The notes under the pieces: generated by a model
Seen by the model: the letters and a program-made list of their open reading frames with translations, nothing else
The model's database searches: none
What the model was told of the DNA's origin: nothing
DNA from: an archaeon
GTDB lineage: Archaea; Hydrothermarchaeota; Hydrothermarchaeia; JALTZZ01
Direction of reading: 5' to 3'
DNA length: 21,213 bases
Assembly: GCA_027051165.1 (NCBI GenBank)
Contig: JALTZZ010000034.1
Span: forward strand, 1 to 21,213
Made by a program: the position numbers and the translations under genes
Part shown: positions 4,117 through 21,170 of the stretch, one piece after another
Numbering within the stretch: the first letter of the stretch is position 1
How the letters are laid out: each line of letters starts with the position of its first letter

Positions 4117-4132
4117 CCTCACAGCTGTGAGG
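4117..4132. promoter_or_regulatory. palindrome module copy a: CCTCACAGCTGTGAGG
   Basis: 16-nt perfect dyad; minus side AAATTGATTTATAAA box then ATG 4085; plus side GTTTCGAAAGGCTTAAGAAG arm upstream of the SPFH gene. Confidence 0.6.
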
Positions 4133-4215
4133 TTTCGAAAGGCTTAAGAAGCGAATATCAAAGCTAAGATGTTCTGTGCATGAAATTTGAGGAAGCTGCT
4201 TGAGGAGAGGGTGGT

Positions 4216-5106
4216 ATGTGGGACGACGAAGACACGAAGAAGCATGAAGGGAGAAAGATTTTTGCAGGTATAGCGCTGCTGATACTGCTTGTGTTTTTCT
4301 TCGTTCTTTCGGCGGTATACACGGTTGATCAGACGGAAATGGCGGTTGTAAAGCAGTTTGGAAAGGTTCACAAGATAACTGGTCCGGGCTTGCACTTCAA
4401 GATTCCTGTAATACAGACCGTAGATAAATACTATGTTGGTGTAAGGACTCTTAATTTAGTCGGAAAAGAAGAGGTTGTGGCATTGAGCAATGACGGCTTA
4501 GAGATACACATGGACATAAGCGTTCAGACGGCTATAAAGCCAGAAATGGTTGAAACGATAGCAAAGACTTTCAGAAATCCGCAGTATCTCGAAACTTGGA
4601 AGATTGCAACTGTTAGAGCTACAATAAGAGATGTAATAGCGAAGTATCAGGCTACCGATTTATACGGTGAAAAGAGAAAGAGTGTTGAGGCTGATATAAC
4701 AAGGGAGCTTGAGAAGGAGCTCAGCAAATACTACTACGTTAAGGCTGTTTGGATAAGAAAGATTACTCTGCCGCAAAAGGTTAAAGAAGCCATCGAAGCT
4801 AAAATACAGGCACAGCAGGAAGCTGAGAGAATGAAGTATGTTGTTCAGAGGGAAAAGCTTGAAGCTGAGAGGAAGAAGGTTGAAGCTGAGGGCATAGCTC
4901 AAGCAAATGCAATTATAGGCGAAAGCTTGAGAAAAAACCCAGAATACATACAGTGGTATTTCATGAAGTCCTTAGAGGAGATGGCAAAGAATCCGAACAC
5001 AATTTTCTTGGTTGTCCCGATACCGAGCAGCTACTTCAGCTGGCAGGGCAATCTAACCCAGATGCCACAGATACCTGTGATAATACAGCCTCAACCAAGA
5101 AATTAA
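4216..5106 (+). CDS. SPFH/band-7 (prohibitin/stomatin/HflC-like) membrane protein
   Basis: 296 aa; N-terminal TM helix, then a typical SPFH core (VDQTEMAVVKQFGKV...GPGLHFKIPVIQTV) and a coiled-coil EAxxKxQAQQEAER tail; GGAGGAGAGGGTGG Shine-Dalgarno-like run before the ATG. Confidence 0.85.
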   Translation: MWDDEDTKKHEGRKIFAGIALLILLVFFFVLSAVYTVDQTEMAVVKQFGKVHKITGPGLHFKIPVIQTVDKYYVGVRTLNLVGKEEVVALSNDGLEIHMDISVQTAIKPEMVETIAKTFRNPQYLETWKIATVRATIRDVIAKYQATDLYGEKRKSVEADITRELEKELSKYYYVKAVWIRKITLPQKVKEAIEAKIQAQQEAERMKYVVQREKLEAERKKVEAEGIAQANAIIGESLRKNPEYIQWYFMKSLEEMAKNPNTIFLVVPIPSSYFSWQGNLTQMPQIPVIIQPQPRN

Positions 5107-5134
5107 CTCTTTTTTATTTTTGTGAAGTGATGCT

Positions 5135-5458
5135 ATGTGGGAAGATGTGAAAGGGATAATAGTAAGAGGTGTGAAAGAAGCAGAAGAATTTGCTGAATTT
5201 TGCAAAGAGAATGATCCAAGACTTCTTAAAAGGATTATCATGCAGAAGATTAGAGAAGCTGAGAAGTTGCTTGAAAAATCAGAAGATAAAATACCTGATG
5301 AATTTAAGGATGAGGTATTTGAGTTTATCAGCGGGTTGAAGTTTAAGTATCGGTGGCTCGGAATAGATGAGATCGAATTCTCCGACTACATCTTAATCAG
5401 CAGGTTGATTGAGAAGCTGAAAAAGCTTAAAAACATTTCCTGCAGATACAAAATCTGA
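5135..5458 (+). CDS. hypothetical 107-aa acidic protein
   Basis: ORF directly after the SPFH gene on the same strand; charged K/E-rich composition; stop overlaps the next small ORF (TGATG). Confidence 0.5.
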   Translation: MWEDVKGIIVRGVKEAEEFAEFCKENDPRLLKRIIMQKIREAEKLLEKSEDKIPDEFKDEVFEFISGLKFKYRWLGIDEIEFSDYILISRLIEKLKKLKNISCRYKI

Positions 5459-5616
5459 TGGGAAGAACAGATCTGCATGTGGAATTCGGAAATCTGATAG
5501 CCTCGGCGATAATATCGGTTTTCTTCATAGTATTGGGATTTTACACCGAAAAGTGGATATCCATCTTGGGGACTATTTTTTGCATCTTATTTATCATGAA
5601 AGGATACAAACACTAA
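5458..5616 (+). CDS. candidate 52-aa two-TM small membrane protein (below the 60-aa ORF-track threshold)
   Basis: ATG overlaps the stop of 5135..5458 (TGATG); translation MGRTDLHVEFGNLIASAIISVFFIVLGFYTEKWISILGTIFCILFIMKGYKH has two hydrophobic helices. Confidence 0.35.
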   Translation: MGRTDLHVEFGNLIASAIISVFFIVLGFYTEKWISILGTIFCILFIMKGYKH

Positions 5617-6215
5617 ACCTCAAAGACATAATCTCTCCACCCAAGTCCGTTTCCATGCGTTACCGATACAACTGCAGCGTTCTTTCCTATTTTCACTTCG
5701 ATGATTTTGTATCCCTTCTTTTTTCTTCTGTCCAAAGGAGCAAAATACTCTCCAATCTTTTCTTGAAAAACTTTTTCATCCGAATAATCAAAAAAGCCCT
5801 TATACTCCTTAGGCTCTACCCCCAACTCCTTAAGCAGATAACGGAGATAGTCCTCTAATTCAACCCATGGATAAACTATTACCGCGATCTCCGGAGTCGT
5901 GTAGCTTCTGCACCTGAAGCAGTATGTCTTTCCATCTTTTATTGACAATCTTCCCTTACATTTCGGGCACACCTCTATTCTTTCTTTCACAAGCTCGGTC
6001 TTCACACCTTTGGGATCTTCCTCCATTAGGAAATAATCTCTGTGTTCAGCATCATAAATGATGTAGAACTTTTCCCTGCAATAGTATACATCCTTAATTC
6101 TGCTTTCTTTCAGCAGAACACGCACTTCATCCTCATCTTTGGTTAGAAGCCTCGCCGGAATTCTCCCACCTTTAACAATTCTGCCTCCGATCCAGCTTGC
6201 CACCAAAACAGCCAT
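5613..6215 (-). CDS. zinc-ribbon protein (CPKC...CFRC), function unknown
   Basis: 200 aa; CxxC-x16-CxxC ribbon; GGAGGAG Shine-Dalgarno 6 nt before the ATG on the minus strand. Confidence 0.6.
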   Translation of the reverse strand: MAVLVASWIGGRIVKGGRIPARLLTKDEDEVRVLLKESRIKDVYYCREKFYIIYDAEHRDYFLMEEDPKGVKTELVKERIEVCPKCKGRLSIKDGKTYCFRCRSYTTPEIAVIVYPWVELEDYLRYLLKELGVEPKEYKGFFDYSDEKVFQEKIGEYFAPLDRRKKKGYKIIEVKIGKNAAVVSVTHGNGLGWRDYVFEV

Positions 6216-6430
6216 ACATTCTCCTCCTTTAAATTCGTTGACAACTTCATCATAAATTTCTATATGAGCTTAAACACCTTATAGTCCTACGGTATCAAAT
6301 AGATTATCCATACATTTTCACTCTTTTTAGCCCTAATATCTTGAATACGGTCACATGAATATCCTCTAACAAGCTCTTCCACCCTCATAATATTCGGCTG
6401 ATTCATCCTCTTATTTTACCCTTTCGCACA

Positions 6431-6445
6431 CTCACAGCTGTGAGG
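6431..6445. promoter_or_regulatory. palindrome module copy b
   Basis: CTCACAGCTGTGAGG followed by GAATTCCATTTTTAAGCTCTCTACT arm on the plus side. Confidence 0.55.
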
Positions 6446-6473: not shown

Positions 6474-6650
6474 ATGCTCATAAGGTTTATAAAAGATAGA
6501 AGAGGAGGCTCGGGACTCTTTGAACTCATAATGGTTATTGCGATGATAGGAGTGGTGGCGGTAGTAGCCGCAGATTTTATGAACAAAGCGGTAGATCTCG
6601 GAAGCAAAGCAAAAAACGCAACGTTGAGCGTTGTCAACTCCACAGGATAG
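6474..6650 (+). CDS. candidate 58-aa hydrophobic small protein
   Basis: ATG about 21 nt downstream of a plus-oriented palindrome plus CATTTTTAAGCTC box; hydrophobic core LIMVIAMIGVVAVVAADF; competes with the low-complexity antisense ORF 6416..6712. Confidence 0.25.
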   Translation: MLIRFIKDRRGGSGLFELIMVIAMIGVVAVVAADFMNKAVDLGSKAKNATLSVVNSTG

Positions 6651-6880: not shown

Positions 6881-6894
6881 TCACAGCTGTGAGG
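6881..6894. promoter_or_regulatory. palindrome module copy c (slightly degenerate left arm)
   Basis: TCACAGCTGTGAGG then ATTTGATTTTAAAAAT box; ATG 6925 is 24 nt after the box. Confidence 0.55.
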
Positions 6895-6924: not shown

Positions 6925-7431
6925 ATGAAGGAGTATAAGCACTATAAAAGATTGGAGAAGTGGCTTGCATCTAAAGGATTCAGCATTTTTGAGAAGATTA
7001 GGTATGGAAAGCATGAATTCGATATAGTTGGAATAAATGATATTAAAACTATCAATGTAGAGGTAAAAGAGGTGTTTTTTCAAAGATTGATAGATCAGGC
7101 GAAGAAGAGGCTGGAGCTGAAGATTTTCGATTATGTGTATATTGCTTATCCTTTCAGGAAGAAGCCCAAGGTTGATTGGCTCGCTGAATACGGCATAGGT
7201 GTTATTGATTTATCTAATAACGAGATTGTTTTATCGGCTAAGAGGCTTGAGACCGACTTTAGAGAAAAGGAGAAGTTTATCAATTATTTGTTGAGAAAGA
7301 ATTTTGAAATATCTATTGAGCATGATGACTATTATTTTCTGAAAAGAAGATTGAAGAAAGAGGGGTTTAAGAGCGTTGAAGATTTTCTGATAAAATATGC
7401 TCGGTATGAGCTTGAGGTTTATAAACGCTGA
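6925..7431 (+). CDS. PD-(D/E)xK (restriction-endonuclease/Hjc-NucS-like fold) nuclease-like protein
   Basis: 168 aa; E..L...G...hhFDIVG (D) ... NVEVKE (ExK) motif order; leaderless-type promoter (palindrome 6881, TTTTAAAAAT box, ATG at 6925). Confidence 0.6.
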   Translation: MKEYKHYKRLEKWLASKGFSIFEKIRYGKHEFDIVGINDIKTINVEVKEVFFQRLIDQAKKRLELKIFDYVYIAYPFRKKPKVDWLAEYGIGVIDLSNNEIVLSAKRLETDFREKEKFINYLLRKNFEISIEHDDYYFLKRRLKKEGFKSVEDFLIKYARYELEVYKR

Positions 7432-7450
7432 TTCTCACAGCTGTGAGAAT
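7431..7450. promoter_or_regulatory. palindrome module copy d: ATTCTCACAGCTGTGAGAAT (20-nt perfect, variant outer arms)
   Basis: Begins at the stop codon of 6925..7431; acts as its terminator hairpin; pairs with copy e across a 72-nt iteron-bearing spacer. Confidence 0.6.
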
Positions 7451-7522: not shown

Positions 7523-7540
7523 CCCTCACAGCTGTGAAGG
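7523..7540. promoter_or_regulatory. palindrome module copy e (one mismatch: CCCTCACAGCTGTGAAGG)
   Basis: Seen directly; 72 nt from copy d. Confidence 0.5.
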
Positions 7541-7544
7541 TAAG

Positions 7545-7736: not shown

Positions 7737-8135
7737 TCACACCTTCACAGCTGTGAGGAACTTTCTTTTATAGTAGTGGACGGTTGAAACCGGGATTCCG
7801 AGCCTTTTTGAAACCTGCTTAACGGTTAAACCCTTTTTGAGAAGCTCAATCACGGGCTTCGGATCTCTCCTTTTAGGTCTTCCCGGCATTTTGCACTCGG
7901 CAACAAGATCAACGCCCACCTTTTCCAAAGCTCTTTTTATCTTGCTCGGAACCGCTTTGTGCAGGCTCGGCGGAATGGAAATCTCTTTTATGTTCGGAGC
8001 CTTGGAAAGAATGTGGACGAGCACCGCGGTTGAAGGTCTTATGCTCAAATGAACCTTCTCGGTTTTTTCATCGAGCTTTTCCTCAATTTCGTGGAAAATT
8101 TCTTCAATGGTTTTAGCCTGCAGCTTCACTTCCAT
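7737..8135 (-). CDS. helix-turn-helix DNA-binding protein (C-terminal HTH), candidate regulator
   Basis: 132 aa; C-terminal GRPKRR...LTVKQVSKRLGIPVSTVHYY HTH resembling resolvase/transposase-N HTH; ATG 8135 sits about 30 nt after the GTTCGAAAATCTTAAGA arm of palindrome 8178. Confidence 0.7.
   Translation of the reverse strand: MEVKLQAKTIEEIFHEIEEKLDEKTEKVHLSIRPSTAVLVHILSKAPNIKEISIPPSLHKAVPSKIKRALEKVGVDLVAECKMPGRPKRRDPKPVIELLKKGLTVKQVSKRLGIPVSTVHYYKRKFLTAVKV
7742..7758. promoter_or_regulatory. palindrome module copy f (CCTTCACAGCTGTGAGG)
   Basis: 5 nt after the stop of minus gene 7737..8135; terminator-like position. Confidence 0.55.
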
Positions 8136-8177: not shown

Positions 8178-8192
8178 CTCACAGCTGTGAGG
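8178..8192. promoter_or_regulatory. palindrome module copy g, bidirectional promoter
   Basis: Plus side GAATTCGATTTTTAAGCTTTAAGGTTGCTGGTGGTGGGT then ATG 8231; minus side GTTCGAAAATCTTAAGAG then ATG 8135. Confidence 0.65.
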
Positions 8193-8230
8193 AATTCGAT
8201 TTTTAAGCTTTAAGGTTGCTGGTGGTGGGT

Positions 8231-8563
8231 ATGTATGTTGATAAGGAGAAGCAACTTCAGGGCTTAATTAAAAGCTACATGGTGTATGCTCAGAACTTGG
8301 GGATTTCGGAGAGGGAACTTTTGGATATGATATACTATGCGGCGAGAACGAGAGGGGATCAGTATAAGTGCCTGAACTGCGTTTACTCAAGGGCGCACAA
8401 AAGCATAAACGAGAAGAAAGTTGAAAAAGAGGGAAGGATAAGCATATACGCAAGGCAGTGCGTTTTCGGGATTTTCTACAGAGAGGACTGCCCGGTTCAG
8501 GTTCCCATAATCGAGAGGAAAAATGATGAGGCTTCTCTACGAGCTGAACAGGAAAGCGAGTGA
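8231..8563 (+). CDS. cassette gene A (copy 1): 110-aa Cys-containing protein (KCLNC ... QC ... DC), unknown
   Basis: ATG at 8231 (track start 8216 is TTG) 30 nt after GATTTTTAAGC box and preceded by GGTGGTGGGT; 80-90 % identical paralog at 20097..20414. Confidence 0.6.
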   Translation: MYVDKEKQLQGLIKSYMVYAQNLGISERELLDMIYYAARTRGDQYKCLNCVYSRAHKSINEKKVEKEGRISIYARQCVFGIFYREDCPVQVPIIERKNDEASLRAEQESE

Positions 8564-8885
8564 AACCATAAGGTTCAAAGCCCTTGCATTCTGGCTCGGA
8601 AACGCTGTTAGCATCGTTGAAAGAGGAAAAATAATCAAGGCAACGGTTTTCCTCGAAGGATATCAGAAAGCTCCAAATATTGTAGTTATAAACGAAGAGA
8701 GAATTTCGTGCACGAAGAAGGGAAGGAAGTGCGATTCCTTGAGAACGAACGGCGTGTGCTCCCACGTTCTTGCCGTCCTTTACGCCGTCTGCAGAACAAC
8801 CGGCTTCAGAGGTGAGGAGTATTGGAGGCTGAAGAAAAAAGCGCAGAATTTTCTGAAAAGCTGGAGTGCAAAAAGAAAGAGGTGA
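8523..8885 (+). CDS. cassette gene B (copy 1): SWIM-type zinc-finger protein
   Basis: 120 aa; ISCTKKGRKCDSLRTNGVCSHVLAVLYA fits the SWIM CxC..CxH signature (CSHVLAVL resembles the canonical CKHILAVL); overlaps the end of A; paralog at 20389..20751. Confidence 0.7.
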   Translation: MMRLLYELNRKASETIRFKALAFWLGNAVSIVERGKIIKATVFLEGYQKAPNIVVINEERISCTKKGRKCDSLRTNGVCSHVLAVLYAVCRTTGFRGEEYWRLKKKAQNFLKSWSAKRKR

Positions 8886-9124
8886 AGAATGCGATAATAT
8901 TTATAGGTGCGACCGCAATGTATCTATTTTACGTCGTTCTGCTGGCAACCTTCATGCTCGCATACGGGAGCGATGCGAAGCAGGTTGTCGTGGACGTGAA
9001 CGGCTTCGGAGAGGCGAAAATCGAATACATAATGCTGCTATTTCTCACTCCGCTGCTCACGCTTGCTTATTACTACATAGCCGAAGAAATGAGCTGCAGA
9101 AGGTGCAGAATCAGAAAATCCTGA
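8882..9124 (+). CDS. cassette gene C (copy 1): 80-aa two-TM membrane protein with C-terminal CRRC; start re-called to GTG overlapping the B stop (GTGA)
   Basis: track ORF 8822 begins at TTG; the in-frame GTG at 8882 overlaps the B stop, and the paralog has ATG at the identical position (ATGA at 20748); hydrophobic helices IIFIGATAMYLFYVVLLATFML and IMLLFLTPLLTLAYYYI. Confidence 0.55.
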   Translation: MKNAIIFIGATAMYLFYVVLLATFMLAYGSDAKQVVVDVNGFGEAKIEYIMLLFLTPLLTLAYYYIAEEMSCRRCRIRKS

Positions 9125-9260
9125 ACTCCCCCTTTCTCAGCTTTTCTTCAATCTTCTTCAGCTTTTTGTAATCGAGCCCGTATTTTTCCGCAGTCTCCTT
9201 CCATCTTCCGTTGCCCAGAAGAATTTGTATCATGTCGTGAAGCTTGATCACGATCTTCAT
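9111..9260 (-). CDS. cassette gene D (copy 1): convergent 49-aa protein, possible mini-HTH
   Basis: Not in track (<60 aa). MKIVIKLHDMIQILLGNGRWKETAEKYGLDYKKLKKIEEKLRKGEFRIF. Minus-strand palindrome 9289 plus GAATTCGATTTTTAAAATTTTATAAAAAT box, then ATG. 3' end overlaps C by 14 nt antisense. Paralog at 20977..21126. Confidence 0.45.
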   Translation of the reverse strand: MKIVIKLHDMIQILLGNGRWKETAEKYGLDYKKLKKIEEKLRKGEFRIF

Positions 9261-9288
9261 ATTTTTATAAAATTTTAAAAATCGAATT

Positions 9289-9303
9289 CTTCACAGCTGT
9301 GAG
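9289..9303. promoter_or_regulatory. palindrome module copy h
   Basis: CTTCACAGCTGTGAG; minus side GAATTCGATTTTTAAAATTTTATAAAAAT then ATG 9260 (gene D1). Confidence 0.55.
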
Positions 9304-9471: not shown

Positions 9472-9786
9472 TCATTTTTTAACCACCTTTTTCAGCTTTT
9501 CGTAGAATGCTTTCAGCTCCTCATCGGCTACAAACGCTTTCATCCATTTTTCAAGGTGCCGGAGAAGAAGCTCGGGCATGGGCTTCTCCGGAACGTATAA
9601 TCTATCTTTTTCTTCGAATCCACGTTCATAGCTTCTGCACATCCACTTTCCGCAGATTTTCTTCTTGCACGGATCTTCCGGCAGAGGGAACAGCCATCTC
9701 CAGTCGGGAGATTTCAAAACCGGGCATCCGAGCAAAGATTCTTGCTCCCACAGCTTTTCAAACACCTCGCAGGGGATTTTATTCAT
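9472..9786 (-). CDS. 104-aa Cys/Trp-rich protein, unknown; likely co-transcribed with the PAPS-reductase-like gene
   Basis: Start overlaps the 3' end of 9779..10633 by 8 nt; six Cys (CEV, GCP, CKKKICGKWMC). Confidence 0.5.
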   Translation of the reverse strand: MNKIPCEVFEKLWEQESLLGCPVLKSPDWRWLFPLPEDPCKKKICGKWMCRSYERGFEEKDRLYVPEKPMPELLLRHLEKWMKAFVADEELKAFYEKLKKVVKK

Positions 9787-10633
9787 GCGAGCATCCCCTG
9801 CCAGCTATATGAGGTAAAAAGCACTGACAGCTTATTTTTTCAAGCTTTTTAACCCTTTTAACTCCCTCTTTACCTTTTAAATCAGCCTTGCTGAAAATAT
9901 TCATCAGCCTTTCGTAATCCTCGGGAAAGAACCTCTTTATTTTCATGATCTTTTCCTCTGAGAGATCGTGGAGCATGCACATGCATTCCCCGCTCATAGA
10001 AATAGCTTTATACACGGGATTAACAGGCAGACTGGCAGCTTTTATGTATTCTTCAACCTTTTCTCTGTTCCAATCTAATATAGGACAGTAGCTGTATTCT
10101 TTGTGCCTTCCCTTATACACTTTGTTCGTCTTCAGATACTCGCCGTAAATCTCAAATCTCCTTGAGCTCTCGTGAATTCTTATCCCGTTCACCGACAGCT
10201 TCACACCGTTTATTGATTTTAAGAACTTGGACAGAGGCTGATACTTGAGAACACGGAAGCACCACCTGCATCTGCCGTGTAAAGGCACACCCCACCTTTT
10301 TAGTCCATCTTCAAAGCTCATCTCGGGCTTTAAAACCTTGAAGTCGAAGGGATACCTCTTAACGAACTCCCTGATAAACTGCTTGCATGCGGAGATTCCT
10401 ATTCCCGTATCAATGTGAATTATAGTTGCTTTTACGCTCAGCTTGGCGGTTTTGTAAAGCCTGTAGAAAACATCTAAAGCAACCATGCTGTCCTTACCGC
10501 CGCTGAAGAGAATGAAGATGTTTTTGGGCCTGTAAAGCTCAACAACCTTCTTTAAATTCTCAGCTTCCTCTAAAAGTCCAAATCTCCTTAATAAATCCGC
10601 TTCTTTAAAAAACTTCTGCAGAGTCATCTGCAT
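9779..10633 (-). CDS. PAPS reductase / PP-loop ATP pyrophosphatase family protein (CysH/DndC-like fold)
   Basis: 284 aa; FSGGKDS PP-loop; DWNREKVEEYIKAASLPVNPVYKA..SMSGECMCM aligns with the CysH-family DWxxxDVWxYIxxxxLPYNPLY..GYxSIGC motif; C-terminal Cys cluster; promoter is palindrome 10676 plus CTTTAAAAG box about 30 nt before ATG 10633. Confidence 0.85.
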   Translation of the reverse strand: MQMTLQKFFKEADLLRRFGLLEEAENLKKVVELYRPKNIFILFSGGKDSMVALDVFYRLYKTAKLSVKATIIHIDTGIGISACKQFIREFVKRYPFDFKVLKPEMSFEDGLKRWGVPLHGRCRWCFRVLKYQPLSKFLKSINGVKLSVNGIRIHESSRRFEIYGEYLKTNKVYKGRHKEYSYCPILDWNREKVEEYIKAASLPVNPVYKAISMSGECMCMLHDLSEEKIMKIKRFFPEDYERLMNIFSKADLKGKEGVKRVKKLEKISCQCFLPHIAGRGCSHE

Positions 10634-10675: not shown

Positions 10676-10690
10676 CCTCACAGCTGTGAG
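10676..10690. promoter_or_regulatory. palindrome module copy i
   Basis: Minus side GTTCAGAAAGCTTTAAAAGAAAGC then ATG 10633 (PAPS-reductase-like gene). Confidence 0.6.
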
Positions 10691-10753: not shown

Positions 10754-11323
10754 TCACTTCTCCCCGCATATGAACTTCACTATGCTTTCAAGCTTCTTCT
10801 TCAGCTTTGAATCAGCTTCGAAGCTCTCTATGTCGTTTCTTATAAGCCAAGAATCGAGCTTCTTTATGTAGGGAATCCACTCTATAAGCTGCAAACCCAG
10901 CTCCTTGGCTACGCTCAAAGCCTCTTTTTCGCTGGCAGATAGATTTACCACGACACCTAAAACCCCGCATCCGCAGTTATAAGCAGTTTCGACGAGCTCC
11001 TTGGCTACGAGAACGTTGTGCCTGTGCGGCAGAGTTATCAAAACCAGATCCATCGGATTTTCCTTCAAATACAGGAAGCTCTGCTTCTCCCTCGGGAAGA
11101 CAACGATTCCCAATCCAGCTCCTTTCTTAGCCTTGTTGTATAGTTTTGTCAGCTTTCCGAGCTCGTCGAAGTCGTAAACTCTGATATCAAATTCTTTTGC
11201 TATTAAGCTTGCGATAGTGCACTTGCCTGAGTTGTTCTCTCCTATAAATCCCACCGGCTTGCTCAGAGAATAAACCTTCTCCTCCTTTTTCAAAAAGTCC
11301 TTAAGCATGTTGTCGAGGTTCAT
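10754..11323 (-). CDS. small P-loop NTPase (Walker A GENNSGKCT, Walker-B-like DLVLITL)
   Basis: 189 aa; leaderless-type start about 22 nt after CTTATAAGC box next to perfect palindrome 11351..11370. Confidence 0.65.
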   Translation of the reverse strand: MNLDNMLKDFLKKEEKVYSLSKPVGFIGENNSGKCTIASLIAKEFDIRVYDFDELGKLTKLYNKAKKGAGLGIVVFPREKQSFLYLKENPMDLVLITLPHRHNVLVAKELVETAYNCGCGVLGVVVNLSASEKEALSVAKELGLQLIEWIPYIKKLDSWLIRNDIESFEADSKLKKKLESIVKFICGEK

Positions 11324-11350
11324 GCCATACTTGTGAGCTTATAAGCTTGA

Positions 11351-11370
11351 TTCCTCACAGCTGTGAGGAA
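11351..11370. promoter_or_regulatory. palindrome module copy j: TTCCTCACAGCTGTGAGGAA (20-nt perfect), bidirectional promoter
   Basis: Plus side TTGATTTTTTAAG then ATG 11398; minus side CAAGCTTATAAGCTC then ATG 11323. Confidence 0.65.
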
Positions 11371-11397
11371 TTGATTTTTTAAGTTTAAGTTATCCTT

Positions 11398-12121: not shown

Positions 12122-12439
12122 ATGGCGGGGGTTATTATTTTTGTAGATAGGATTGCGCTTTTAGTAAGTTTTGTTAAAAACGAGATAAAAAGCATCAGCA
12201 AAAACGAAACGGAAGCCGTTTTCAACGTTCTAAGCGTGGTTCATGAACTGCTGAGAGATGTAGAAGTGAAGGACGATGAACTGAAGAAAAAGCTGAGAGC
12301 TGTAAAAGATATAACGAGGGCTGAGATAGAGAGCATAGAGAAAAATCCGTTCTCAAAGGCGCTGGCGACAATTTACATTACAAAGGAGCTTTTGGAAGAT
12401 TTCCACAGCGAGGCAGAGCTTCTCGTAAAGCAGAGGTGA
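12122..12439 (+). CDS. hypothetical 105-aa protein, first gene of a coupled operon
   Basis: Starts in the conserved module tail GGTGGTGCGGAATGGCGGGG; stop overlaps the next start (GTGA). Confidence 0.5.
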   Translation: MAGVIIFVDRIALLVSFVKNEIKSISKNETEAVFNVLSVVHELLRDVEVKDDELKKKLRAVKDITRAEIESIEKNPFSKALATIYITKELLEDFHSEAELLVKQR

Positions 12440-14132: not shown

Positions 14133-15143
14133 ATGATAACTGTGCTTGAATTGGAGAATTTTAGGGGAGTAAAAAAAGGCAGGATAGAATTAGCTCCGCT
14201 TACAATTCTCCTCGGTGGAAACAACTCCGGAAAAACAACAATCCTTGAAGCACTTTTCTTAGCTCCAAATCCCTTCCGTGGAGTTCCTTATTCTTTAAAA
14301 CCTTATAATGCAGCAGTAGCAGTCCTTCGTTATCTTCATGAAACTTTGGACAGCAAAGGTTATGCCTTCTTACTTTACAATTATATTTTAAACTCTGCTA
14401 AAATATCTTGCAGAGCTGATAATATGCATTACAGTCTCGTTTTTTCGAAGGAACAACCTTCACAAGACCTCATTTCAGTAATTTTAACCAAGCAAGATTC
14501 TTCTTGGACTGTAGGAAGATTATCAACTGTACATGATAATATCACTCCAATAAGTTCAGAATTGTATATGAAGAATACTCTTCTTATTTCCTCAAAACTC
14601 AGAGATTATGGATACCGATATATTGAGGAGAACTGGGCAGCCATTATAAACCTCGGAATATGCAGAAAAGTTGCAAAGGAAACTTCTGAGCTTGTTTCTG
14701 AAAATTATATAGATATAACCATGGAGCCTTTCCTTGGAGGACAACTTGCTATCTATGCATTTTTGGAGGACGGAAGGAGGATAAGGCTGGGAGATCTCGG
14801 TGAGGGTGTTCAGAACTACATACTTGCGAGAGTACTCTACGAAGTGGCAAAGCCAGAGACCCTTCTGTGGGATGACGTTGAGGCGCACTTTAATCCAAGG
14901 ATGCTCTTAAGAATTGCGGAATGGTTCTCCGAACTTATAGAGAAAAATAAACAGGTTATAGTTTCCACGCACAGCTTAGAAGCGGCTAAAATAATTGCTG
15001 GCATGGCTGAAGAAAAGGCAAGAATATACCTCACATCTTTAAAAGACGGTGAGCTTAAAGCTAAAAGCCTCACTCTTAAAGAAGTTGAAGAGCTACAGGA
15101 AGCCGGGATTGATGTAAGAGTTGCGGAGCCGATGCTGCTATGA
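14133..15143 (+). CDS. ABC-type / AAA_21-OLD-like ATPase (defence-associated ATPase family)
   Basis: 336 aa; N-terminal LENFRG...LTILLGGNNSGKTTILEAL Walker A; C-terminal LLWDDVEAHFNP (Walker B-like DD) and QVIVSTHSLE (H-loop); 117-nt AT-rich promoter region upstream; ATGA-coupled to the next gene. Confidence 0.8.
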   Translation: MITVLELENFRGVKKGRIELAPLTILLGGNNSGKTTILEALFLAPNPFRGVPYSLKPYNAAVAVLRYLHETLDSKGYAFLLYNYILNSAKISCRADNMHYSLVFSKEQPSQDLISVILTKQDSSWTVGRLSTVHDNITPISSELYMKNTLLISSKLRDYGYRYIEENWAAIINLGICRKVAKETSELVSENYIDITMEPFLGGQLAIYAFLEDGRRIRLGDLGEGVQNYILARVLYEVAKPETLLWDDVEAHFNPRMLLRIAEWFSELIEKNKQVIVSTHSLEAAKIIAGMAEEKARIYLTSLKDGELKAKSLTLKEVEELQEAGIDVRVAEPMLL

Positions 15144-15840: not shown

Positions 15841-15856
15841 CCTCACAGCTGTGAGG
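15841..15856. promoter_or_regulatory. palindrome module copy l (16-nt perfect), bidirectional terminator position
   Basis: Lies between convergent gene ends 15829 (+) and 15888 (-). Confidence 0.55.
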
Positions 15857-15887: not shown

Positions 15888-16205
15888 CTATTTGAATCCG
15901 CTTTTTAAAATAGCCTTAGCCAAATTTTCATCCCTCTGCTCAGAGAACTGATTTAGCCTTTCCCTCATTCTCGTAATAACGTTCTTAAGCTCTTCAATTT
16001 CCTTCTCTTTTCTTCTTATTTCTAAAAAAAGAGTTGTATTTTCATCTTTAAGCTCTTTTATCTGTTTCTTCAGCTTTGCGGTCTTCTTTTCCGTAAGCAA
16101 ACCTGAAAACACGAGCTCGCTGATAAAAGCTAAAATAAGAAAGATTATCATTGTGTTTAAATCTTCCTGCATTCCCGCAATAAAGGCGAAGACAACGCCT
16201 ATCAT
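15888..16205 (-). CDS. small membrane protein with N-terminal TM region and coiled-coil tail
   Basis: 105 aa; MIGVVFAFIAG...IIFLILAFISELVFSGLL then a K/E heptad-like region; ATGA-coupled to 16202..16546. Confidence 0.55.
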   Translation of the reverse strand: MIGVVFAFIAGMQEDLNTMIIFLILAFISELVFSGLLTEKKTAKLKKQIKELKDENTTLFLEIRRKEKEIEELKNVITRMRERLNQFSEQRDENLAKAILKSGFK

Positions 16206-16546
16206 GATGGTGTGTAGCCGAAGAACTTCTCGGCGAGGACTTTTATCAAATACGGACCTGCGAGCACGCCTATCGCGGTAATAGCTCCGGCTGCAATGAT
16301 CCCGGTTGCCATCGTGTCCATCCTCGCTCCTACCTCACCGGGCACCTTCTTGGCAAGCGATTTTACTATGAAACCTATTGCGGTGGCGAGCATTCCCAAA
16401 AAGAACCCTATTTTCTGAACTCCCTCAAGCCACTGTGCAAGTGCTGTAGCTATCTGGCTTAAGCTTGGTCCTGATATGGACTGTGCATGCACGGTATCAA
16501 GAAGTGCTAATACAGCCAAACCTATGAGCAGCATTCTCGGGTTCAT
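16202..16546 (-). CDS. secreted small hydrophobic protein, TrbC/VirB2-pilin-like architecture
   Basis: 114 aa; signal peptide MNPRMLLIGLAVLALLDTVHA|Q then two hydrophobic segments (IGFFLGMLATAIGFIV; GIIAAGAITAIGVLAGPYLI); promoter is palindrome 16573 plus TTTAAAAGC box then ATG. Confidence 0.55.
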   Translation of the reverse strand: MNPRMLLIGLAVLALLDTVHAQSISGPSLSQIATALAQWLEGVQKIGFFLGMLATAIGFIVKSLAKKVPGEVGARMDTMATGIIAAGAITAIGVLAGPYLIKVLAEKFFGYTPS

Positions 16547-16572: not shown

Positions 16573-16592
16573 TTCCTCACAGCTGTGAGGAA
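16573..16592. promoter_or_regulatory. palindrome module copy m (20-nt perfect)
   Basis: Abuts the stop of 16593..17150 (-); minus side CAGTTTAAAAGCTGACAACAAGCC then ATG 16546. Confidence 0.65.
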
Positions 16593-17150
16593 TCAGCGGG
16601 GTCTGTAGTATTCTCTGTCTTTTCTTATCAATCGATTCTCAAACAACTCTGCAGTAGCTCTATACACTTCCTGCCTGCTCATGTCTAAATAGTTCATTAT
16701 CTGCGAAAAAGTCGCTCCGTTATTCTGTTTAATAAATTCATAAACCCTTCTTGCAGATTCGCTGAGATTTTTAGTTTTTTCTTCATCGGATTTCTGATAT
16801 TCTTTTCTTTCTTCTCTTCTTCTGATTTCGCTCTCATACTCTCGAAAGGATTGATTTTTTAACTCTTCGAGAATCTGCAGAATCAGATCTACTTTCCTTT
16901 CTATTTTATCGAGCTTTTCCAAGATTTCCGTGCTCTGACCTGCCGTGCTTATAGAGATTTTCTGCAGCATCTGCTTTGCAACATAGCTTCTCGCTCTCAT
17001 TATTTTTTCCTGTAGATCTGGGGCATTCTGATAGTCGTCCCTGTATTCCGCAAGCTCCTGCAGAAATTTTATTTTTTCCTCCTCACTCTTACCTTCCAAA
17101 GCCTTTTCTATAAACTTCTTAGCATCCTCTATAAACAGCTCGTCCATCAT
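16593..17150 (-). CDS. winged-helix transcriptional regulator with N-terminal coiled coil
   Basis: 185 aa; C-terminal ARRVYEFIKQNNGATFSQIMNYLDMSRQEVYRATAELFENRLIRK wHTH; bracketed by palindromes 16573 (3' end) and 17179 (promoter). Confidence 0.7.
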   Translation of the reverse strand: MMDELFIEDAKKFIEKALEGKSEEEKIKFLQELAEYRDDYQNAPDLQEKIMRARSYVAKQMLQKISISTAGQSTEILEKLDKIERKVDLILQILEELKNQSFREYESEIRRREERKEYQKSDEEKTKNLSESARRVYEFIKQNNGATFSQIMNYLDMSRQEVYRATAELFENRLIRKDREYYRPR

Positions 17151-17178: not shown

Positions 17179-17194
17179 CCTCACAGCTGTGAGG
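17179..17194. promoter_or_regulatory. palindrome module copy n, bidirectional promoter
   Basis: Plus side TTCAGCATTTTTAAGCTCTCTTATTTTTCGGTGTGAGGG then ATG 17234; minus side AATTAATTTAAAAGCTCCTAACAAGGC then ATG 17150. Confidence 0.65.
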
Positions 17195-17233
17195 TTCAGC
17201 ATTTTTAAGCTCTCTTATTTTTCGGTGTGAGGG

Positions 17234-17860
17234 ATGGCGGGGAGATTTGTAGATGCTTTTTTTAGGAAGTTCTATTTTGACAAGTGGGATGAGAAATGGC
17301 AAGAAAAAAGAGATTACTATATAATAAGCCATCAGCACGGAGATCACATAAGAAAACCAGAATACATACCAGAAGGAACTGAAATAATCGTTTCAGAGCA
17401 CAGATTTAAGAGATATACAGTATTCAGCAATTTCAAGCCAACGGTTATAAAAGAAAAAGAATTTGTAAGTTTTGGGGATTTTAAAGTTAGAATCATAAAT
17501 ACAACTTTACACAGCGATGTAATAGAAGTTATATGGAAAAATATAAGAGCATTGCTTTTTGGAGATATAAGCGCACACCAAACGGACAGTATCATTGATA
17601 TTCTGAAGAATGCTCAGCCCGACGTGGTGATGCTGCCGGTATATTCAAAGGGAAGCAAGCATATAGAAGAGGAAATATACTACAAAGACCTCAACAGAGC
17701 GGTAGGTGAAATTGTAAAAAGGCTTCATTGGAAAAGATTTTTCCCCAAAAGACCTTACATTGTTGCCCTGCAGCACAGCGACAATGCCAAAAAACCAAAG
17801 TGGGCAGATGCTTTCGTAAAAAAGTTCCCGACAGGATACTTTCGATTTAACAATTTTTAA
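17234..17860 (+). CDS. metallo-beta-lactamase-fold hydrolase
   Basis: 208 aa; HQHGDH (HxHxDH) motif; start embedded in the conserved GGGATGGCGGGG module tail downstream of palindrome 17179. Confidence 0.8.
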   Translation: MAGRFVDAFFRKFYFDKWDEKWQEKRDYYIISHQHGDHIRKPEYIPEGTEIIVSEHRFKRYTVFSNFKPTVIKEKEFVSFGDFKVRIINTTLHSDVIEVIWKNIRALLFGDISAHQTDSIIDILKNAQPDVVMLPVYSKGSKHIEEEIYYKDLNRAVGEIVKRLHWKRFFPKRPYIVALQHSDNAKKPKWADAFVKKFPTGYFRFNNF

Positions 17861-17907
17861 GTGTTTATGTTTTTTATTTTTTGCGAAGAAAAAAGAAAAA
17901 TTCTTAT

Positions 17908-19958: not shown

Positions 19959-19974
19959 CCTCACAGCTGTGAGG
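19959..19974. promoter_or_regulatory. palindrome module copy o
   Basis: Minus side GGTTCGAAAAATTTTTAAACGG box, then about 155-nt GC-rich leader, then TTG 19767. Confidence 0.55.
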
Positions 19975-20042
19975 AACTCAACTTCCCTAAGGTATCTACA
20001 ATGTTTTAATCATGAAAAAACTATTCATAAACTTTACTGCAT

Positions 20043-20058
20043 CTTCACAGCTGTGAGG
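20043..20058. promoter_or_regulatory. palindrome module copy p (CTTCACAGCTGTGAGG)
   Basis: Plus side GAATTCGGTTTTTAAATTCTAAGGTTTCTGGTGGTGTGT then ATG 20097 (paralogous to copy g arm). Confidence 0.6.
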
Positions 20059-20096
20059 AATTCGGTTTTTAAATTCTAAGGTTTCTGGTGGTGTGT

Positions 20097-20414
20097 ATGT
20101 ATGTTGATAAGGAGAAGCAGCTTCAGGGATTGATTAAAAGCTATATGGTGTATGCTCAGGGCTTGGGGATTTCGGAGAAGGAGATTTTAAATATGATATA
20201 CTTCGCCGCCCGTGAGAGGGGAGATAGATTCAAGTGCCTGAACTGCATATACAGCAGGGCTCACAAAAGCATAAACGAGAAGAAGGTTGAAAAAGAGGGA
20301 AGGATAAGCATATACGCAAGGCAGTGCGTATTCGGGATTTTCTACAGGGACGACTGCCCGGTTCAGGTGCCTATAATCGAGAGGAAGGATGAGAGGTCTT
20401 CTTCACAAGCTTAA
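20097..20414 (+). CDS. cassette gene A (copy 2)
   Basis: Paralog of 8231..8563 (about 85 % aa identity over the first 95 aa; C-terminal tails differ); ATG 20097 follows GGTGGTGTGT; track start 20088 is GTG. Confidence 0.6.
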   Translation: MYVDKEKQLQGLIKSYMVYAQGLGISEKEILNMIYFAARERGDRFKCLNCIYSRAHKSINEKKVEKEGRISIYARQCVFGIFYRDDCPVQVPIIERKDERSSSQA

Positions 20415-20751
20415 CAGAAAAGCGAGCGAAACAATAAGGTTCAAAGCGCTGGCATTTTGGCTCGGAAATGCGGTTAGCATCGTTGAAAAGGGGAAAACAA
20501 TTAAGGCAACGGTTTTTCTCGAAGGATATCAGAAAGCTCCGAACATTGTGGTTATAAACGAAGAGAGAATTTCATGCACGAAGAAGGGGAGAAAGTGCGA
20601 CTCTTTAAGAAGAAACGGCGTGTGCTCCCACGTTCTTGCAGTTCTGTATGCTCTGTGCAGAACAACCGGATACAGAGGTGAGGAGTATTGGAAGCTGAAG
20701 AAAAAGGCGCAGAGCTTCCTCAAAAGCTGGAGTGCAAAAAGAGTGAGATGA
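20389..20751 (+). CDS. cassette gene B (copy 2): SWIM-type zinc-finger protein
   Basis: Paralog of 8523..8885; same CTKKGRKCDSLRRNGVCSHVLAVLYA motif; a compensating indel pair at the A/B junction keeps the B start. Confidence 0.7.
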   Translation: MRGLLHKLNRKASETIRFKALAFWLGNAVSIVEKGKTIKATVFLEGYQKAPNIVVINEERISCTKKGRKCDSLRRNGVCSHVLAVLYALCRTTGYRGEEYWKLKKKAQSFLKSWSAKRVR

Positions 20752-20990
20752 AAAGAGATGTAATAATTATAGGTGCAACTGTAATGTTTATGTTTTACAC
20801 CGTCCTGCTGGCAACCTTCATGCTCGCATACGAGAGCGAGGCAAAGCAGGTTGTTGTGGATATCAATGCCTACGGAGAAGCCAAAATAGAATACATAATG
20901 CTGATGTTCACCACTCCGCTGCTCGTGCTCGCTTATTATTACATTATTGAAGAGTTAAGCTGCAGAAGATGCAAGCTTAAAAAATCCTGA
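20748..20990 (+). CDS. cassette gene C (copy 2): 80-aa two-TM membrane protein (ATG overlapping B stop, ATGA)
   Basis: Track start 20688 is TTG; ATG 20748 overlaps the B2 stop exactly where copy 1 has GTG; C-terminal CRRC conserved. Confidence 0.55.
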   Translation: MKRDVIIIGATVMFMFYTVLLATFMLAYESEAKQVVVDINAYGEAKIEYIMLMFTTPLLVLAYYYIIEELSCRRCKLKKS

Positions 20991-21126
20991 ACTCCCCCTT
21001 TCTCAGCTTTTCTTCGATCTTTCTCAGCTTTTTGTAATCGAGTCCGTATTTTTCAGCCGTCTTCTTCCATCTGCTGTTCCCAAGCAGAATCTCCATCAGG
21101 TCGTGAAGGTTCATCACGATCTTCAT
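20977..21126 (-). CDS. cassette gene D (copy 2): convergent 49-aa protein
   Basis: MKIVMNLHDLMEILLGNSRWKKTAEKYGLDYKKLRKIEEKLRKGEFRIF; 41/49 identical to copy 1; minus-strand palindrome 21154 plus AATTTAAAAGC box upstream. Confidence 0.45.
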   Translation of the reverse strand: MKIVMNLHDLMEILLGNSRWKKTAEKYGLDYKKLRKIEEKLRKGEFRIF

Positions 21127-21153
21127 GCATGCATAACAGCTTTTAAATTCTAT

Positions 21154-21170
21154 CCTTCACAGCTGTGAGG
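21154..21170. promoter_or_regulatory. palindrome module copy q, bidirectional
   Basis: Minus side ATAGAATTTAAAAGCTGTTATGCATGC then ATG 21126; plus side GTTTGTATTTTTAAGCTCTCTACTTATTGGTGGTGCGGATGG runs off the window end. Confidence 0.6.

Follow-up and report, generated by a model that had tools for sequence, protein, structure and literature searches.

The question raised by this locus is what function is served by one short perfect palindrome that recurs throughout the window, that is, the whole 21,213-nt stretch of DNA analysed. The 10-mer CACAGCTGTG was found in 17 exact copies in the window, against an expectation of 0.01, and this number was reached in 0 of 100 shuffles. What stays invariant is the 12-mer TCACAGCTGTGA, which also shows 17 exact copies, and no variants of it with one or two mismatches were found in the window. 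The span over which each copy remains a perfect palindrome varies: 12 nt in six copies, 14 nt in three, 16 nt in four, 20 nt in three and 22 nt in one, the span of the last copy (21158) being a reading by eye.

An earlier note on this DNA had listed 17 copies, and our 10-mer starts agree with the starts it gave for the extended palindrome. However, the length of 16 nt that it assigned to the motif is only a consensus around the invariant 12-nt core, as only eight of the 17 copies are perfect over at least 16 nt, and we counted four copies perfect over at least 20 nt (starting at 7431, 11350, 12065 and 16573) instead of its five at 20 nt. Its statement that gene bodies are avoided holds: judged against ORF-based gene calls, 14 of the 17 copies are wholly intergenic, and the other three (7436, 7746 and 12070) reach into gene ends, where they touch only stop or last codons.

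Table 1. Palindrome copies and duplicated module of the window (in the text, copies are named by the start of their 10-mer; box and ATG offsets are in nt from the dyad).
Feature	Positions	Strand	10-mer start	Perfect span	Arms and surroundings
Palindrome copy 1	4117..4132	.	4120	16 nt	Left arm: box at offset 15, 746-aa surface-protein gene 1845..4085(-); right arm: variant box GGCTTAAGAAGC, SPFH gene 4216..5106
Palindrome copy 2	6431..6444	.	6433	14 nt	Right arm: box 15, ATG 36, opens 58-aa pilin/archaellin-like gene 6474..6650
Palindrome copy 3	6881..6892	.	6882	12 nt	Right arm: box 14, ATG 38, gene 6925..7431
Palindrome copy 4	7431..7450	.	7436	20 nt	Touches stop codon of 6925..7431; left edge of 300-bp non-coding repeat hub
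Palindrome copy 5	7526..7537	.	7527	12 nt	Within non-coding hub 7440-7740
Palindrome copy 6	7745..7756	.	7746	12 nt	Overlaps last 6 codons (LTAVKV) of DUF1699_N+HTH gene 7737..8135(-); homology block with relative J65 stops 8 nt from dyad
Palindrome copy 7	8178..8191	.	8180	14 nt	Left border of duplicated module 8179-9303; left arm: variant box, HTH gene 7737..8135(-); right arm long: box 15, GGTGGTG, ATG 46
Palindrome copy 8	9291..9302	.	9292	12 nt	Right border of duplicated module 8179-9303; left arm: box 15, ATG 36, 49-aa gene 9111..9260(-)
Palindrome copy 9	10677..10690	.	10679	14 nt	Left arm: box at 18 (GCTTTAAAAG), PAPS-reductase (BrxP/DndC-like) gene 9779..10633(-)
Palindrome copy 10	11350..11371	.	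11356	22 nt	Middle of fully symmetric 74-bp divergent intergenic region; both arms: box 15, ATG 37, genes 10754..11323(-) and 11398..12096(+); mosaic junction with J65
Palindrome copy 11	12065..12084	.	12070	20 nt	Within last 10 codons of arrestin-like gene 11398..12096, codes its LPHSCEE; stop codon of that gene inside box; right arm long, gene 12122..12439; mosaic junction with J65
Palindrome copy 12	15841..15856	.	15844	16 nt	Boxless on both arms; flanked by convergent genes; ends block 13356-15829 (219-aa protein, AriA/AbiL-like ATPase, 229-aa partner), missing from relative J65
Palindrome copy 13	16573..16592	.	16578	20 nt	0 nt past stop of wHTH gene 16593..17150(-); left arm: box 15, ATG 36, gene 16202..16546(-)
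Palindrome copy 14	17179..17194	.	17182	16 nt	Divergent; short left arm, wHTH gene 16593..17150(-); long right arm, 17234..17860
Palindrome copy 15	19959..19974	.	19962	16 nt	First member of pair spaced 84 bp; right arm: variant box TTCCCTAAGG; mosaic junction with J65
Palindrome copy 16	20045..20056	.	20046	12 nt	Left border of module copy B; long right arm
Palindrome copy 17	21157..21168	.	21158	12 nt	Divergent; right border of module copy B; short left arm, 49-aa gene 20977..21126(-); long right arm (box, GGTGGTG, ATG), gene truncated by contig end
Module copy A	8179..9303	+			Three + strand genes, 49-aa gene on - strand
Module copy B	20045..21169	+			Diverged duplicate of 8179-9303

Distribution of the motif and mosaic joints

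Seven loci (134 kb, GC 35-55%), one of them from the Hydrothermarchaeota MAG JdFR-17, contain 86 exact copies of the 10-mer and about five decayed copies, which are one-mismatch relics of the 12-mer. A 746-aa protein is common to these loci, with 50-88% identity. The motif is conserved across an element family. In L077, all seven copies are confined to 8149-18974, and the flanks, with ribosomal protein L21e, Rpb4 and UbiA, contain none. The island contains defence-like and surface-protein genes, to which the relatives add ParA and a short TFB-like factor. The ParA/CbiA ATPase is among the few genes common to the distant relatives J65, L076 and L077 and shows the palindrome in its own promoter, while the mini-TFB genes of the relatives end ...NSQL, with their TGA falling within the palindrome. 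The earlier proposal of an accessory element, and not ordinary chromosome, is supported in the form of a patchwork island.

Comparison by blastn located 20 of 76 block ends within 10 nt of a dyad. A uniform null gives a binomial P of 4e-18 and an intergenic-only null one of 8e-4, where the HSP ends entering this count are not independent and some represent divergence inside genes instead of true junctions. The segments 8179-9303 and 20045-21169 are 84% identical, and all their ends lie no more than 6.5 nt from a dyad. Furthermore, one block has opposite orientations in the window and in L076, and about half of the window copies are inside colinear, unrearranged blocks. The palindromes form the joints at which modules have been exchanged, duplicated and inverted, a property absent from the earlier note.

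Promoter-like arms

From the dyad outwards, each standard arm shows a half-site (offsets 0-6), a variable 8-nt spacer, a TATA-like second quasi-palindrome, GAGYTTWWAARCTC, and a start codon at about 37 or 47. The box is present on 69 of 171 arms, centred exactly 18.5 nt from the dyad. It starts 15 nt from the dyad centre, at times 14 or 18; a start at exactly offset 15 was found on 51 of 157 arms, and any other offset on at most five. An ATG opening an ORF of at least 40 aa follows 61 of the 69 box-bearing arms, at offsets of 36-38 (37 arms) or 46-47 (15 arms); among box-less arms, 18 of 102 have such an ATG and ORF, at scattered offsets. The A/T box beside the dyad with a start codon beyond it, which the earlier note had described, is thereby confirmed with stricter spacing, including fixed distances to the start codons. 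A half-site with box but without the whole palindrome is essentially absent (one relic), and the unit is therefore the whole palindrome and not the half-site. Among close relatives, identity is 99% in the half-site, 92% in the box and lowest, 81%, in the spacer. Five unrelated proteins have one and the same long arm as far as ATGGCGGGG, in line with the mosaic joints. The near-absolute invariance of the palindrome exceeds the usual strictness of transcription factor sites; an enzyme, for example a recombinase or a nuclease, would fit it too.

In the seven one-sided contexts inspected in the window, the box faces the start of the neighbouring gene. At least five copies had been proposed to drive divergent genes: 11356, 17182 and 21158 indeed show a standard box on either side, whereas 4120 and 8180 combine a standard box with a variant CTTAAGA box at offset ~18. 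The box itself is symmetric, so that it might fire in either direction. Copy 15844 lacks a box on both arms, which runs against the promoter reading that we favour below.

Archaeal activators act from sites directly upstream of the BRE (PMC5512572), and the archaeal TATA centre is placed at about -27 (PMC5316973). With this canonical distance the predicted start site falls at about +45 from the dyad, so that the dyad lies at about -45 and the outer edge of the palindrome 1-2 bp from the expected BRE. Such a start would suit the long arms as leaderless mRNAs. On the 37 short arms, the canonically predicted start lands 8-9 nt within the ORF, and their box-to-ATG spacing conflicts with the usual archaeal promoter geometry, although the short-arm ATG is genuine, as ParA begins MKIVVLESGKGGVGKS.

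Candidate functions of the palindrome

The explanation we prefer, held at about even confidence, is that a dimeric DNA-binding protein docks at the 12-14 bp palindrome, just upstream of BRE/TATA, and that the palindrome is borne on portable promoter modules that recombine at this site. Sequence-specific recognition, which the earlier note had also suggested for the dyad, gives the best account of a 12-mer that stays invariant while the 746-aa protein falls to 50% identity and GC ranges between 35 and 55%. One sequence-specific, probably dimeric, protein would recognise (C)TCACAGCTGTGA(G). With a BRE/TATA-like box directly downstream of it on one arm or on both, this site would be the core of a portable promoter module, uni- or bidirectional. 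Being on nearly every transcription unit of the patchwork island, the module would place the entire island under one factor. The bound protein would most likely aid or gate TFB/TBP recruitment, and the position of the outer edge, 1-2 bp from the BRE, with the dyad near -45, suggests regulation that is most likely activator- or specificity-like and not that of a roadblock repressor. Because the palindrome is identical in all modules, copies could recombine with each other, so that gene modules would be exchanged, duplicated and inverted, and palindromes would double as joints of the mosaic. If so, the site of a single putative protein both controls and shuffles an island in uncultivated Hydrothermarchaeota-type archaea.

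The joints could also be explained if the palindrome mainly served crossover in a site-specific recombination or gene-cassette system, with a function like that of integron attC or of the core sites of other recombinases, and with a secondary, cassette-borne promoter link. Block ends, duplication and inversion meet dyads within ~8 nt, ORFs end in the palindrome or box (at 12070 the arrestin-like gene, at 7746 the HTH gene, and in the relatives the mini-TFB genes), and the boxless copy 15844 ends a block missing from J65. Furthermore, the 12-mer is all-or-nothing, and a perfect palindrome without orientation suits modules in mixed direct and inverted order. We nevertheless regard this as unlikely: Pfam and PHROGs searches of the window proteins and of ten proteins from the relatives detected no integrase, transposase or other recombinase, and the precomputed Pfam hits listed for genes called in J65 (35.7 kb fetched) and in L076 include none either. 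In addition, colinear blocks hold around half of the window copies, recombination alone leaves unexplained the exact spacing of box and start codon kept across lineages, and the common promoter arms of 40-55 nt could yield the same junctions by homologous recombination. A centromere-like, packaging or uptake signal, with any effect on transcription secondary, as for the pSM19035 omega protein, a repressor and centromere binder in one, seems improbable. It might be a parS-type site bound by a protein that partners the conserved ParA ATPase, which J65, L076 and L077 have in common and whose own promoter carries the palindrome, or a DUS/USS-like tag; parS sites are typically many copies of perfect, highly invariant short palindromes, and uptake sequences are typically all-or-nothing invariant at about one copy per kb. 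However, ParB or another recognisable centromere-binding partner was not detected, the sites keep fixed spacing to boxes and start codons instead of clustering around par genes, and, unlike uptake sequences, they avoid gene bodies almost fully.

The earlier note had favoured an RNA hairpin that, together with a T-run, ends the upstream transcript, the T-run serving as TATA box of the next unit; we consider this highly improbable. Copies 7436, 7746, 12070, 15844 and 16578 sit 0-15 nt downstream of a stop codon, T6 follows two of them on the sense strand (7746- and 12070+), and the hairpin of 16578 is stable (-17.8 kcal/mol, z = -4.6). However, of 63 gene-3'-end contexts, 16 have at least five consecutive T in the 45 nt beyond the dyad, which equals the base rate (48 of 172 arms), and five of six folded contexts have energies between -9 and -12 kcal/mol (37 C), no different from shuffles and weak for an organism of warm crustal fluids. 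As far as is known, archaeal termination requires oligo-T rather than a hairpin, whereas many boxes read TTTAAAAG or CTTAAAAG, and those of GC-rich lineages are mostly A-runs on the sense strand. Moreover, a hairpin would allow compensatory changes, but the 12-mer, including its loop AGCT, is invariant and does not covary.

While the terminator model of the earlier interpretation lacks support, its promoter link, accessory element and protein recognition are supported. Its named regulators, the three HTH proteins of the window (7737..8135, 16593..17150 and 9111..9260), are not conserved with the motif: their homologues are confined to the window and the relative closest to it, and the fetched portions of the motif-bearing L076, L077, L081, L084 and L057 contain none. 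L057 keeps three copies of the palindrome and yet has, within its 10-kb fragment, no protein in common with the other loci, which also counts against the docking-site reading; the putative factor may be the product of a gene elsewhere in the host genome.

An invariant palindrome in the window and in related loci

Seventeen copies of CACAGCTGTG were counted in the 21,213-nt window, compared with 0.01 expected from dinucleotide-preserving shuffles, and this recount agrees with the 17 positions listed in the earlier note. A 14-mer, CTCACAGCTGTGAG, allowing up to one mismatch, returned the same 17 places. The truly invariant unit is the 12-mer TCACAGCTGTGA, with 17 exact copies in the window and none with one or two mismatches; the repeated palindrome described in the earlier note is therefore real, its 16 nt being a consensus and not the invariant length. 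Perfect palindromy extends over 12 nt in six copies, 14 nt in three, 16 nt in four, 20 nt in three and 22 nt in one, which gives four copies perfect over at least 20 nt instead of the five 20-nt copies first counted. The copies, named here by the start of their 10-mer, are irregularly spaced at 84 to ~3,770 nt with protein-coding genes in between, and positions 1-4116 contain none. Judged on ORF-based gene calls, 14 of the 17 are fully intergenic, in line with the earlier claim that no copy lies inside a gene body. The other three overlap gene 3' ends only, as the earlier note had said of two of them (7436 and 12070): copy 7436 touches a stop codon, and copies 7746 and 12070 fall within the last 6-10 codons of a gene.

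Related contigs were reached via homologues of two window proteins (see table), and the same palindrome was found in every locus so reached (J65, L076, L077, L081 and L084), a comparison that the earlier note had proposed. Locus L080, an equivalent of L077, is MTME02000048.1 of assembly GCA_002011115, the MAG JdFR-17 named 'Candidatus Hydrothermarchaeota archaeon', whose source is Juan de Fuca Ridge crustal fluids (PMC5369317). The relatives J65 and L076 have 18-30 copies, and L077 shows seven, all between positions 8149 and 18974 of the 22 kb fetched; its flanks, encoding UbiA, ribosomal protein L21e and Rpb4, have none. Across 134 kb (window plus related loci) there are 86 exact 10-mers and ~5 one-mismatch relics of the 12-mer. 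A palindrome that remains identical despite proteins at 50% identity and a 20-point shift in GC is constrained directly and in a sequence-specific way, which would not be expected of a mere hairpin.

A literature search with the motif string returned unrelated eukaryotic primers and sites only. In viral contigs, the 14-mer gave single chance matches and the pattern of motif plus A/T box gave none, and an 18-mer scan of a genome-contig collection, from which the source genome and its low-GC relatives are missing or in which they are masked, found chance matches in bacteria only. The motif-plus-box scan of metagenomes produced 19 chance matches and one real locus, L057, which has three copies with the same architecture and no protein in common with the other loci.

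Coordinates of features in the window and extent of related loci
Sequence	Position or extent	Feature	Observation
Window	1-2000	Low-GC region	GC 29-31% compared with ~40%; no palindrome; looks like a separate insertion
Window	804..1766, - strand	CapP-like M78 peptidase gene	Within the low-GC region
Window	1845..4085(-)	746-aa protein gene	Surface protein common to relatives
Window	7440-7740	Non-coding hub, 300 bp	Between palindromes 7436, 7527 and 7746; homologous block in J65 (~18181-18360)
Window	7737..8135 (132 aa, DUF1699_N-HTH); 9111..9260 (49 aa); 16593..17150 (185 aa, winged HTH)	HTH proteins	
Window	8179-9303; 20045-21169	Duplicated module	Tandem-oriented; four genes (~110, 120, 100 and 49 aa); one copy in J65
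Window	9472-11323	PAPS-reductase-like gene (BrxP/DndC/SspD-like) and neighbours	The PAPS-reductase-like gene is the most conserved gene, 95% identical in J65; its constant neighbours are a Cys-rich 104-aa protein and a P-loop protein of 189 aa; possible DNA-modification module
Window	11324-11397	Divergent intergenic region, 74 bp	Around copy 11356
Window	12122; 17234; 21208 (cut gene)	Long-arm examples	Others in J65 and L076; shared upstream arm of 47 nt
Window	13356-15829	ATPase block	AriA/AbiL/NsnB-like ABC ATPase (14133..15143), overlapping 229-aa partner, 219-aa protein; probably an anti-virus system
Window	19959-20056	Palindromes exactly 84 bp apart	
L074	18449/18533	Palindromes exactly 84 bp apart	
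L076	8297/8381; 13264/13348	Palindromes exactly 84 bp apart	
L074	13812-14477	Mini-TFB	
L076	15015-15680	Mini-TFB	
L077	20555-21265	Mini-TFB	
L076	7104-8294	396-426-aa protein	Several predicted membrane spans; beside pilin-like small genes
L077	13285-14565	396-426-aa protein	As in L076
L081	6241-7482	396-426-aa protein	As in L076
J65	35.7 kb fetched of 43.7 kb	JBPLHO010000065.1	Low GC; protein identity to the window ~85%
L076	22 kb	Second element, same sample	Low GC; 746-aa protein 88% identical
L077 (also L078-L080)	22 kb fetched of 133 kb	JGI contig Ga0314848_000052	GC 51-54%; 746-aa protein 50-51% identical
L081	15 kb fetched of 62 kb	Second JGI contig, metagenome of L077	GC 47%; 50-51% identity
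L084	7 kb	GCA_027051235.1	GC 55%; 50-51% identity

Promoter-like arms and the position of start codons

Positions on an arm are counted from the dyad centre outward, the first base beyond it being offset 0. The half-site CTGTGAG occupies offsets 0-6 and is followed by a spacer of variable sequence and fixed length (offsets 7-14). A second quasi-palindrome, GAGYTTWWAARCTC, spans offsets 12-25 with its centre at 18.5, and its core, TTWWAA, is invariant in all 69 arms having it. In a first pass the TATA-like box started exactly at offset 15 in 51 of 157 arms, and at any other offset in five arms at most. In 61 of the 69 arms with a box, the box is followed by an ATG that begins an ORF of 40 aa or more, and these ATGs fall into two sharply separate groups: short arms (n = 37) have the ATG at offset 36-38, preceded by a pyrimidine, usually C, without a Shine-Dalgarno sequence, and long arms (n = 15) have it at offset 46-47 after a GGTGGTG-like sequence. 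Such an ATG was found in only 18 of 102 box-less arms, at scattered offsets.

By inspection, the box lies on the side of the adjacent gene start in each of seven one-sided contexts read in the window. A half-site with box but without the rest of the palindrome was met as a single relic, and since this combination almost never stands alone the whole palindrome is the unit. Conservation among close relatives is 99% for the half-site, 92% for the box and 81% for the spacer. Furthermore, the long arm is common, nearly base for base, to five unrelated protein families down to ATGGCGGGG, so that all five proteins begin Met-Ala-Gly and the shared module reaches three codons into the ORFs.

The archaeal TATA box is centred ~27 nt upstream of the start site, which is usually a purine preceded by a pyrimidine, and leaderless mRNAs have no Shine-Dalgarno sequence (PMC5316973). 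Canonical spacing from the box centre at 18.5 predicts a start at ~+45, which fits the long arms as leaderless mRNAs but puts their Shine-Dalgarno-like GGTGGTG upstream of the start, and misfits the short arms, whose ATG at 36/37 is only 18 nt from the box centre. The short-arm ATG is real, as ParA begins MKIVVLESGKGGVGKS with a Walker A motif at residue 9; from the C before the ATG and the missing Shine-Dalgarno sequence, short arms look leaderless. 'Crossing' promoters, in which a box would fire across the palindrome, would give divergent pairs canonical spacing; they were rejected as a general rule because of the box position in the seven one-sided contexts, and because, for nine of 39 short arms, nothing A/T-rich is present across the dyad. 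The 18-nt distance from box centre to start codon is the main unexplained feature of the system.

Archaeal activator sites (EarA at the fla promoter, TFB-RF1, Ptr2 and the Sulfolobus ara-box) lie directly upstream of BRE/TATA and recruit TBP or TFB (PMC5512572). The palindrome occupies the same position, since its half-site ends at offset 6 and the box starts at 15, leaving 8 nt for a BRE. It is most likely the docking site of a dimeric DNA-binding protein. Such a dimer would dock directly upstream of BRE/TATA, on a palindrome that standard promoter arms bring to many unrelated genes. The known sites, however, are degenerate and serve single promoters or small host regulons, whereas here an invariant palindrome recurs every ~1.2-1.5 kb across an island, symmetric between two boxes, and most units depart from canonical spacing between box and start codon.

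Gene content and candidate binding proteins

The window is a complete metagenomic contig, and a circular contig was rejected as it has no terminal repeat. An archaeal host is indicated by a protein with DUF1699_N and HTH domains, an archaellin/pilin-type signal peptide, GGTG-type ribosome-binding sites and BRE/TATA-like boxes. No match to phage or plasmid records was obtained with megablast or distant blastn, no tRNA was detected by the tRNA scan, and no Rfam family passed gathering thresholds. The cargo looks like that of an accessory or defence island: it includes an AriA/AbiL/Nsn-like ABC ATPase with its partner, a CapP-like M78 peptidase, a BrxP/DndC/SspD-like PAPS reductase, an SPFH protein, an arrestin-like protein and several HTH proteins. 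The low-GC end of the window is set apart because, beyond the 746-aa gene, the relatives carry different genes.

The three HTH proteins put forward as regulators in the earlier note have homologues in the window and J65 only. NCBIfam searches with candidate regulators gave sub-threshold matches only, including a weak Sta1-like winged helix in 16593..17150. The proteins common to distant relatives are the 746-aa protein, signal-peptide/TM-anchored, ParA, a multi-pass membrane protein, small proteins of 61-62, 112 and 118-125 aa, and a 221-236-aa TFB-like protein. The latter (mini-TFB) combines a zinc ribbon with one cyclin repeat in which the helix-turn-helix is retained; it is conserved in J65, L076 and L077 and absent from the window. 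In J65 and L076 its TGA stop codon lies within a palindrome (the protein ends ...NSQL). The mini-TFB is a candidate binder of the palindrome, as are the three HTH proteins and the conserved core proteins of 61-62 and 118-125 aa. Together with the 18-nt spacing, the mini-TFB points to possible non-standard archaeal transcription initiation. L057, with the palindrome but no shared protein, shows that the gene for the binder can lie elsewhere.

Viral contigs searched with the PAPS reductase, the 746-aa protein and a mini-TFB profile yielded nothing useful, and the AlphaFold2 model of the 746-aa core protein (seven homologues) was not good enough to look for similar folds (pLDDT 58, pTM 0.35). As regards a parS-type centromere, the relatives encode ParA, domain scans found no ParB-like domain, and the palindromes are dispersed at promoters. 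The conserved 396-426-aa membrane protein, in the core of three distant relatives, has no Pfam or PHROG match and might serve as platform protein in an apparatus resembling a pilus or a secretion system; a viral membrane protein is the alternative.

Module joints, alternative readings and comparison with known systems

The window, J65 and L076 were compared by blastn against each other and each against itself. Ends of homology blocks lie at most 10 nt from a dyad in 20 of 76 cases and at most 20 nt in seven more, with binomial P values of 4e-18 (uniform null) and 8e-4 (intergenic-only null), the ends not being fully independent. The duplicated modules of the window are 84% identical at the DNA level, and all four of their ends are at most 6.5 nt from a dyad. 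Between the ParA-like gene and a 105-aa gene, the window has the arrestin-like gene with palindromes 11356 and 12070 as bounds, and J65 has three different genes bounded by three palindromes. J65 lacks the ATPase block, which stops at copy 15844; no other window copy is without a box on both arms. Relative to the window, L076 carries one block in inverted orientation, and ORFs often run into a palindrome, stopping in it or in the box. The sequence common to arms suggests that the palindromes would act as seams of module exchange.

The main rival reading is that the palindrome is a dedicated recombination site. Approximately half of the window copies, however, lie within colinear blocks, so the site is kept even without rearrangement. 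Recombination and promoter docking are compatible roles for one site. The earlier note had seen in the palindrome a hairpin plus oligo-T terminator, and this reading failed as a general function. A run of at least five T within 45 nt past the dyad was found in 16 of 63 ORF-end contexts, which is the base rate (48 of 172 arms), and the boxes themselves are frequently TTTAAAAG or CTTAAAAG. Predicted hairpins are mostly weak: five of six folded contexts gave -9 to -12 kcal/mol at 37 °C, indistinguishable from shuffles, although copy 16578 reached -17.8 kcal/mol (z = -4.6). In addition, the 12-mer does not vary among the 86 copies, not even in its loop bases, and therefore offers no covariation. 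Copies 7746 and 12070 may individually be terminators. A restriction-site effect was rejected, since the central CAGCTG is rare outside motif copies (4-6 extra sites per 22 kb in the loci counted), and so was a CRISPR array, given the wide range of spacings and the genes between copies.

Among known systems, Streptomyces phage phiC31 uses conserved inverted repeats as multi-copy operators. These repeats and stoperators are alike to the present case in that one short motif is found in tens of copies through a mobile element, mostly intergenic and near promoters; theirs is read by a single element-wide regulator, which places most transcription units under one protein. The stoperators of cluster A mycobacteriophages are asymmetric 13-14 bp sites in one orientation, where a monomeric repressor blocks elongation (PMC9283540). 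In contrast, the element described here is a perfect, symmetric palindrome of 12-22 nt with no orientation tied to the direction of transcription, placed upstream of an archaeal TATA-like box at constant spacing and often serving two divergent units in an archaeal host; its copies also coincide with module junctions, and any cognate regulator among the encoded proteins is a candidate at most.

The separation of unrelated accessory genes by a repeated palindromic element that bounds swapped cassettes is reminiscent of integrons. Their attC sites are imperfect palindromes of 57-141 bp with little sequence conservation, recombined as folded single strands by the adjacent IntI integrase, and their cassettes are mostly promoterless and co-oriented. 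Here, unlike attC, the palindrome is perfect, 12-22 bp long and invariant in sequence, and, unlike integron cassettes, each unit has a promoter-like box and orientations are mixed. Neither the Pfam and PHROGs scans nor the precomputed Pfam matches of called genes showed a recombinase domain, IntI-type included, for the window, for 35.7 kb of J65 or for 22 kb of L076. REP/BIME elements, MITE-like palindromes and Neisseria DUS pairs are also short, extragenic, highly repeated and sometimes paired, but they are genome-wide and imperfect and keep no fixed distance to promoter boxes or start codons. All these repeats are sometimes credited with terminator or protein-binding roles, and REPs accompany RAYT transposases; no RAYT was found here. 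The palindrome system thus differs from stoperators, archaeal activator sites and integrons in the defining features of each.

A broader proposal, which we consider rather unlikely, is that of an undescribed archaeal gene-cassette system, in which unrelated accessory and defence genes would travel on portable promoter arms and the palindrome would be both the control site of an island transcription factor and the point of cassette exchange, duplication and inversion. The factor could be the island's short TFB-like protein, with non-canonical initiation at a start codon or start site 18 nt from the box centre.

If the main reading, that of a docking site on promoter arms, is right, this would be a clear case of an archaeal accessory island with many unrelated genes on one invariant control site, a counterpart of phage stoperator or CIR regulons whose control site doubles as a module-shuffling seam. 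Such islands, with their defence-like cargo, could then be recognised in uncultivated archaea by a simple sequence tag, and the system would also provide a testable model of common control over newly acquired genes and natural compact bidirectional archaeal promoter modules.

The palindrome pairs exactly 84 bp apart recur with a conserved spacer, in which a variant box, TTCCCTAAGG, replaces TTTTTAAG. The unit contains no convincing ORF; it might encode a small RNA, or be a promoter that is silenced or regulated. The non-coding hub shows three inverted repeats of the form TTATACA-N6-TGTATAA, all with AAGC in front, as well as four direct repeats of ATCAATTAGTTGRCAA and the hairpin CCTGTGTAACTTAGTTACAGGGG. 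Its TACAT core seems to resemble the EarA site TACATA, and the hub may represent a second set of operators, a region of origin or iteron type, or a non-coding RNA.
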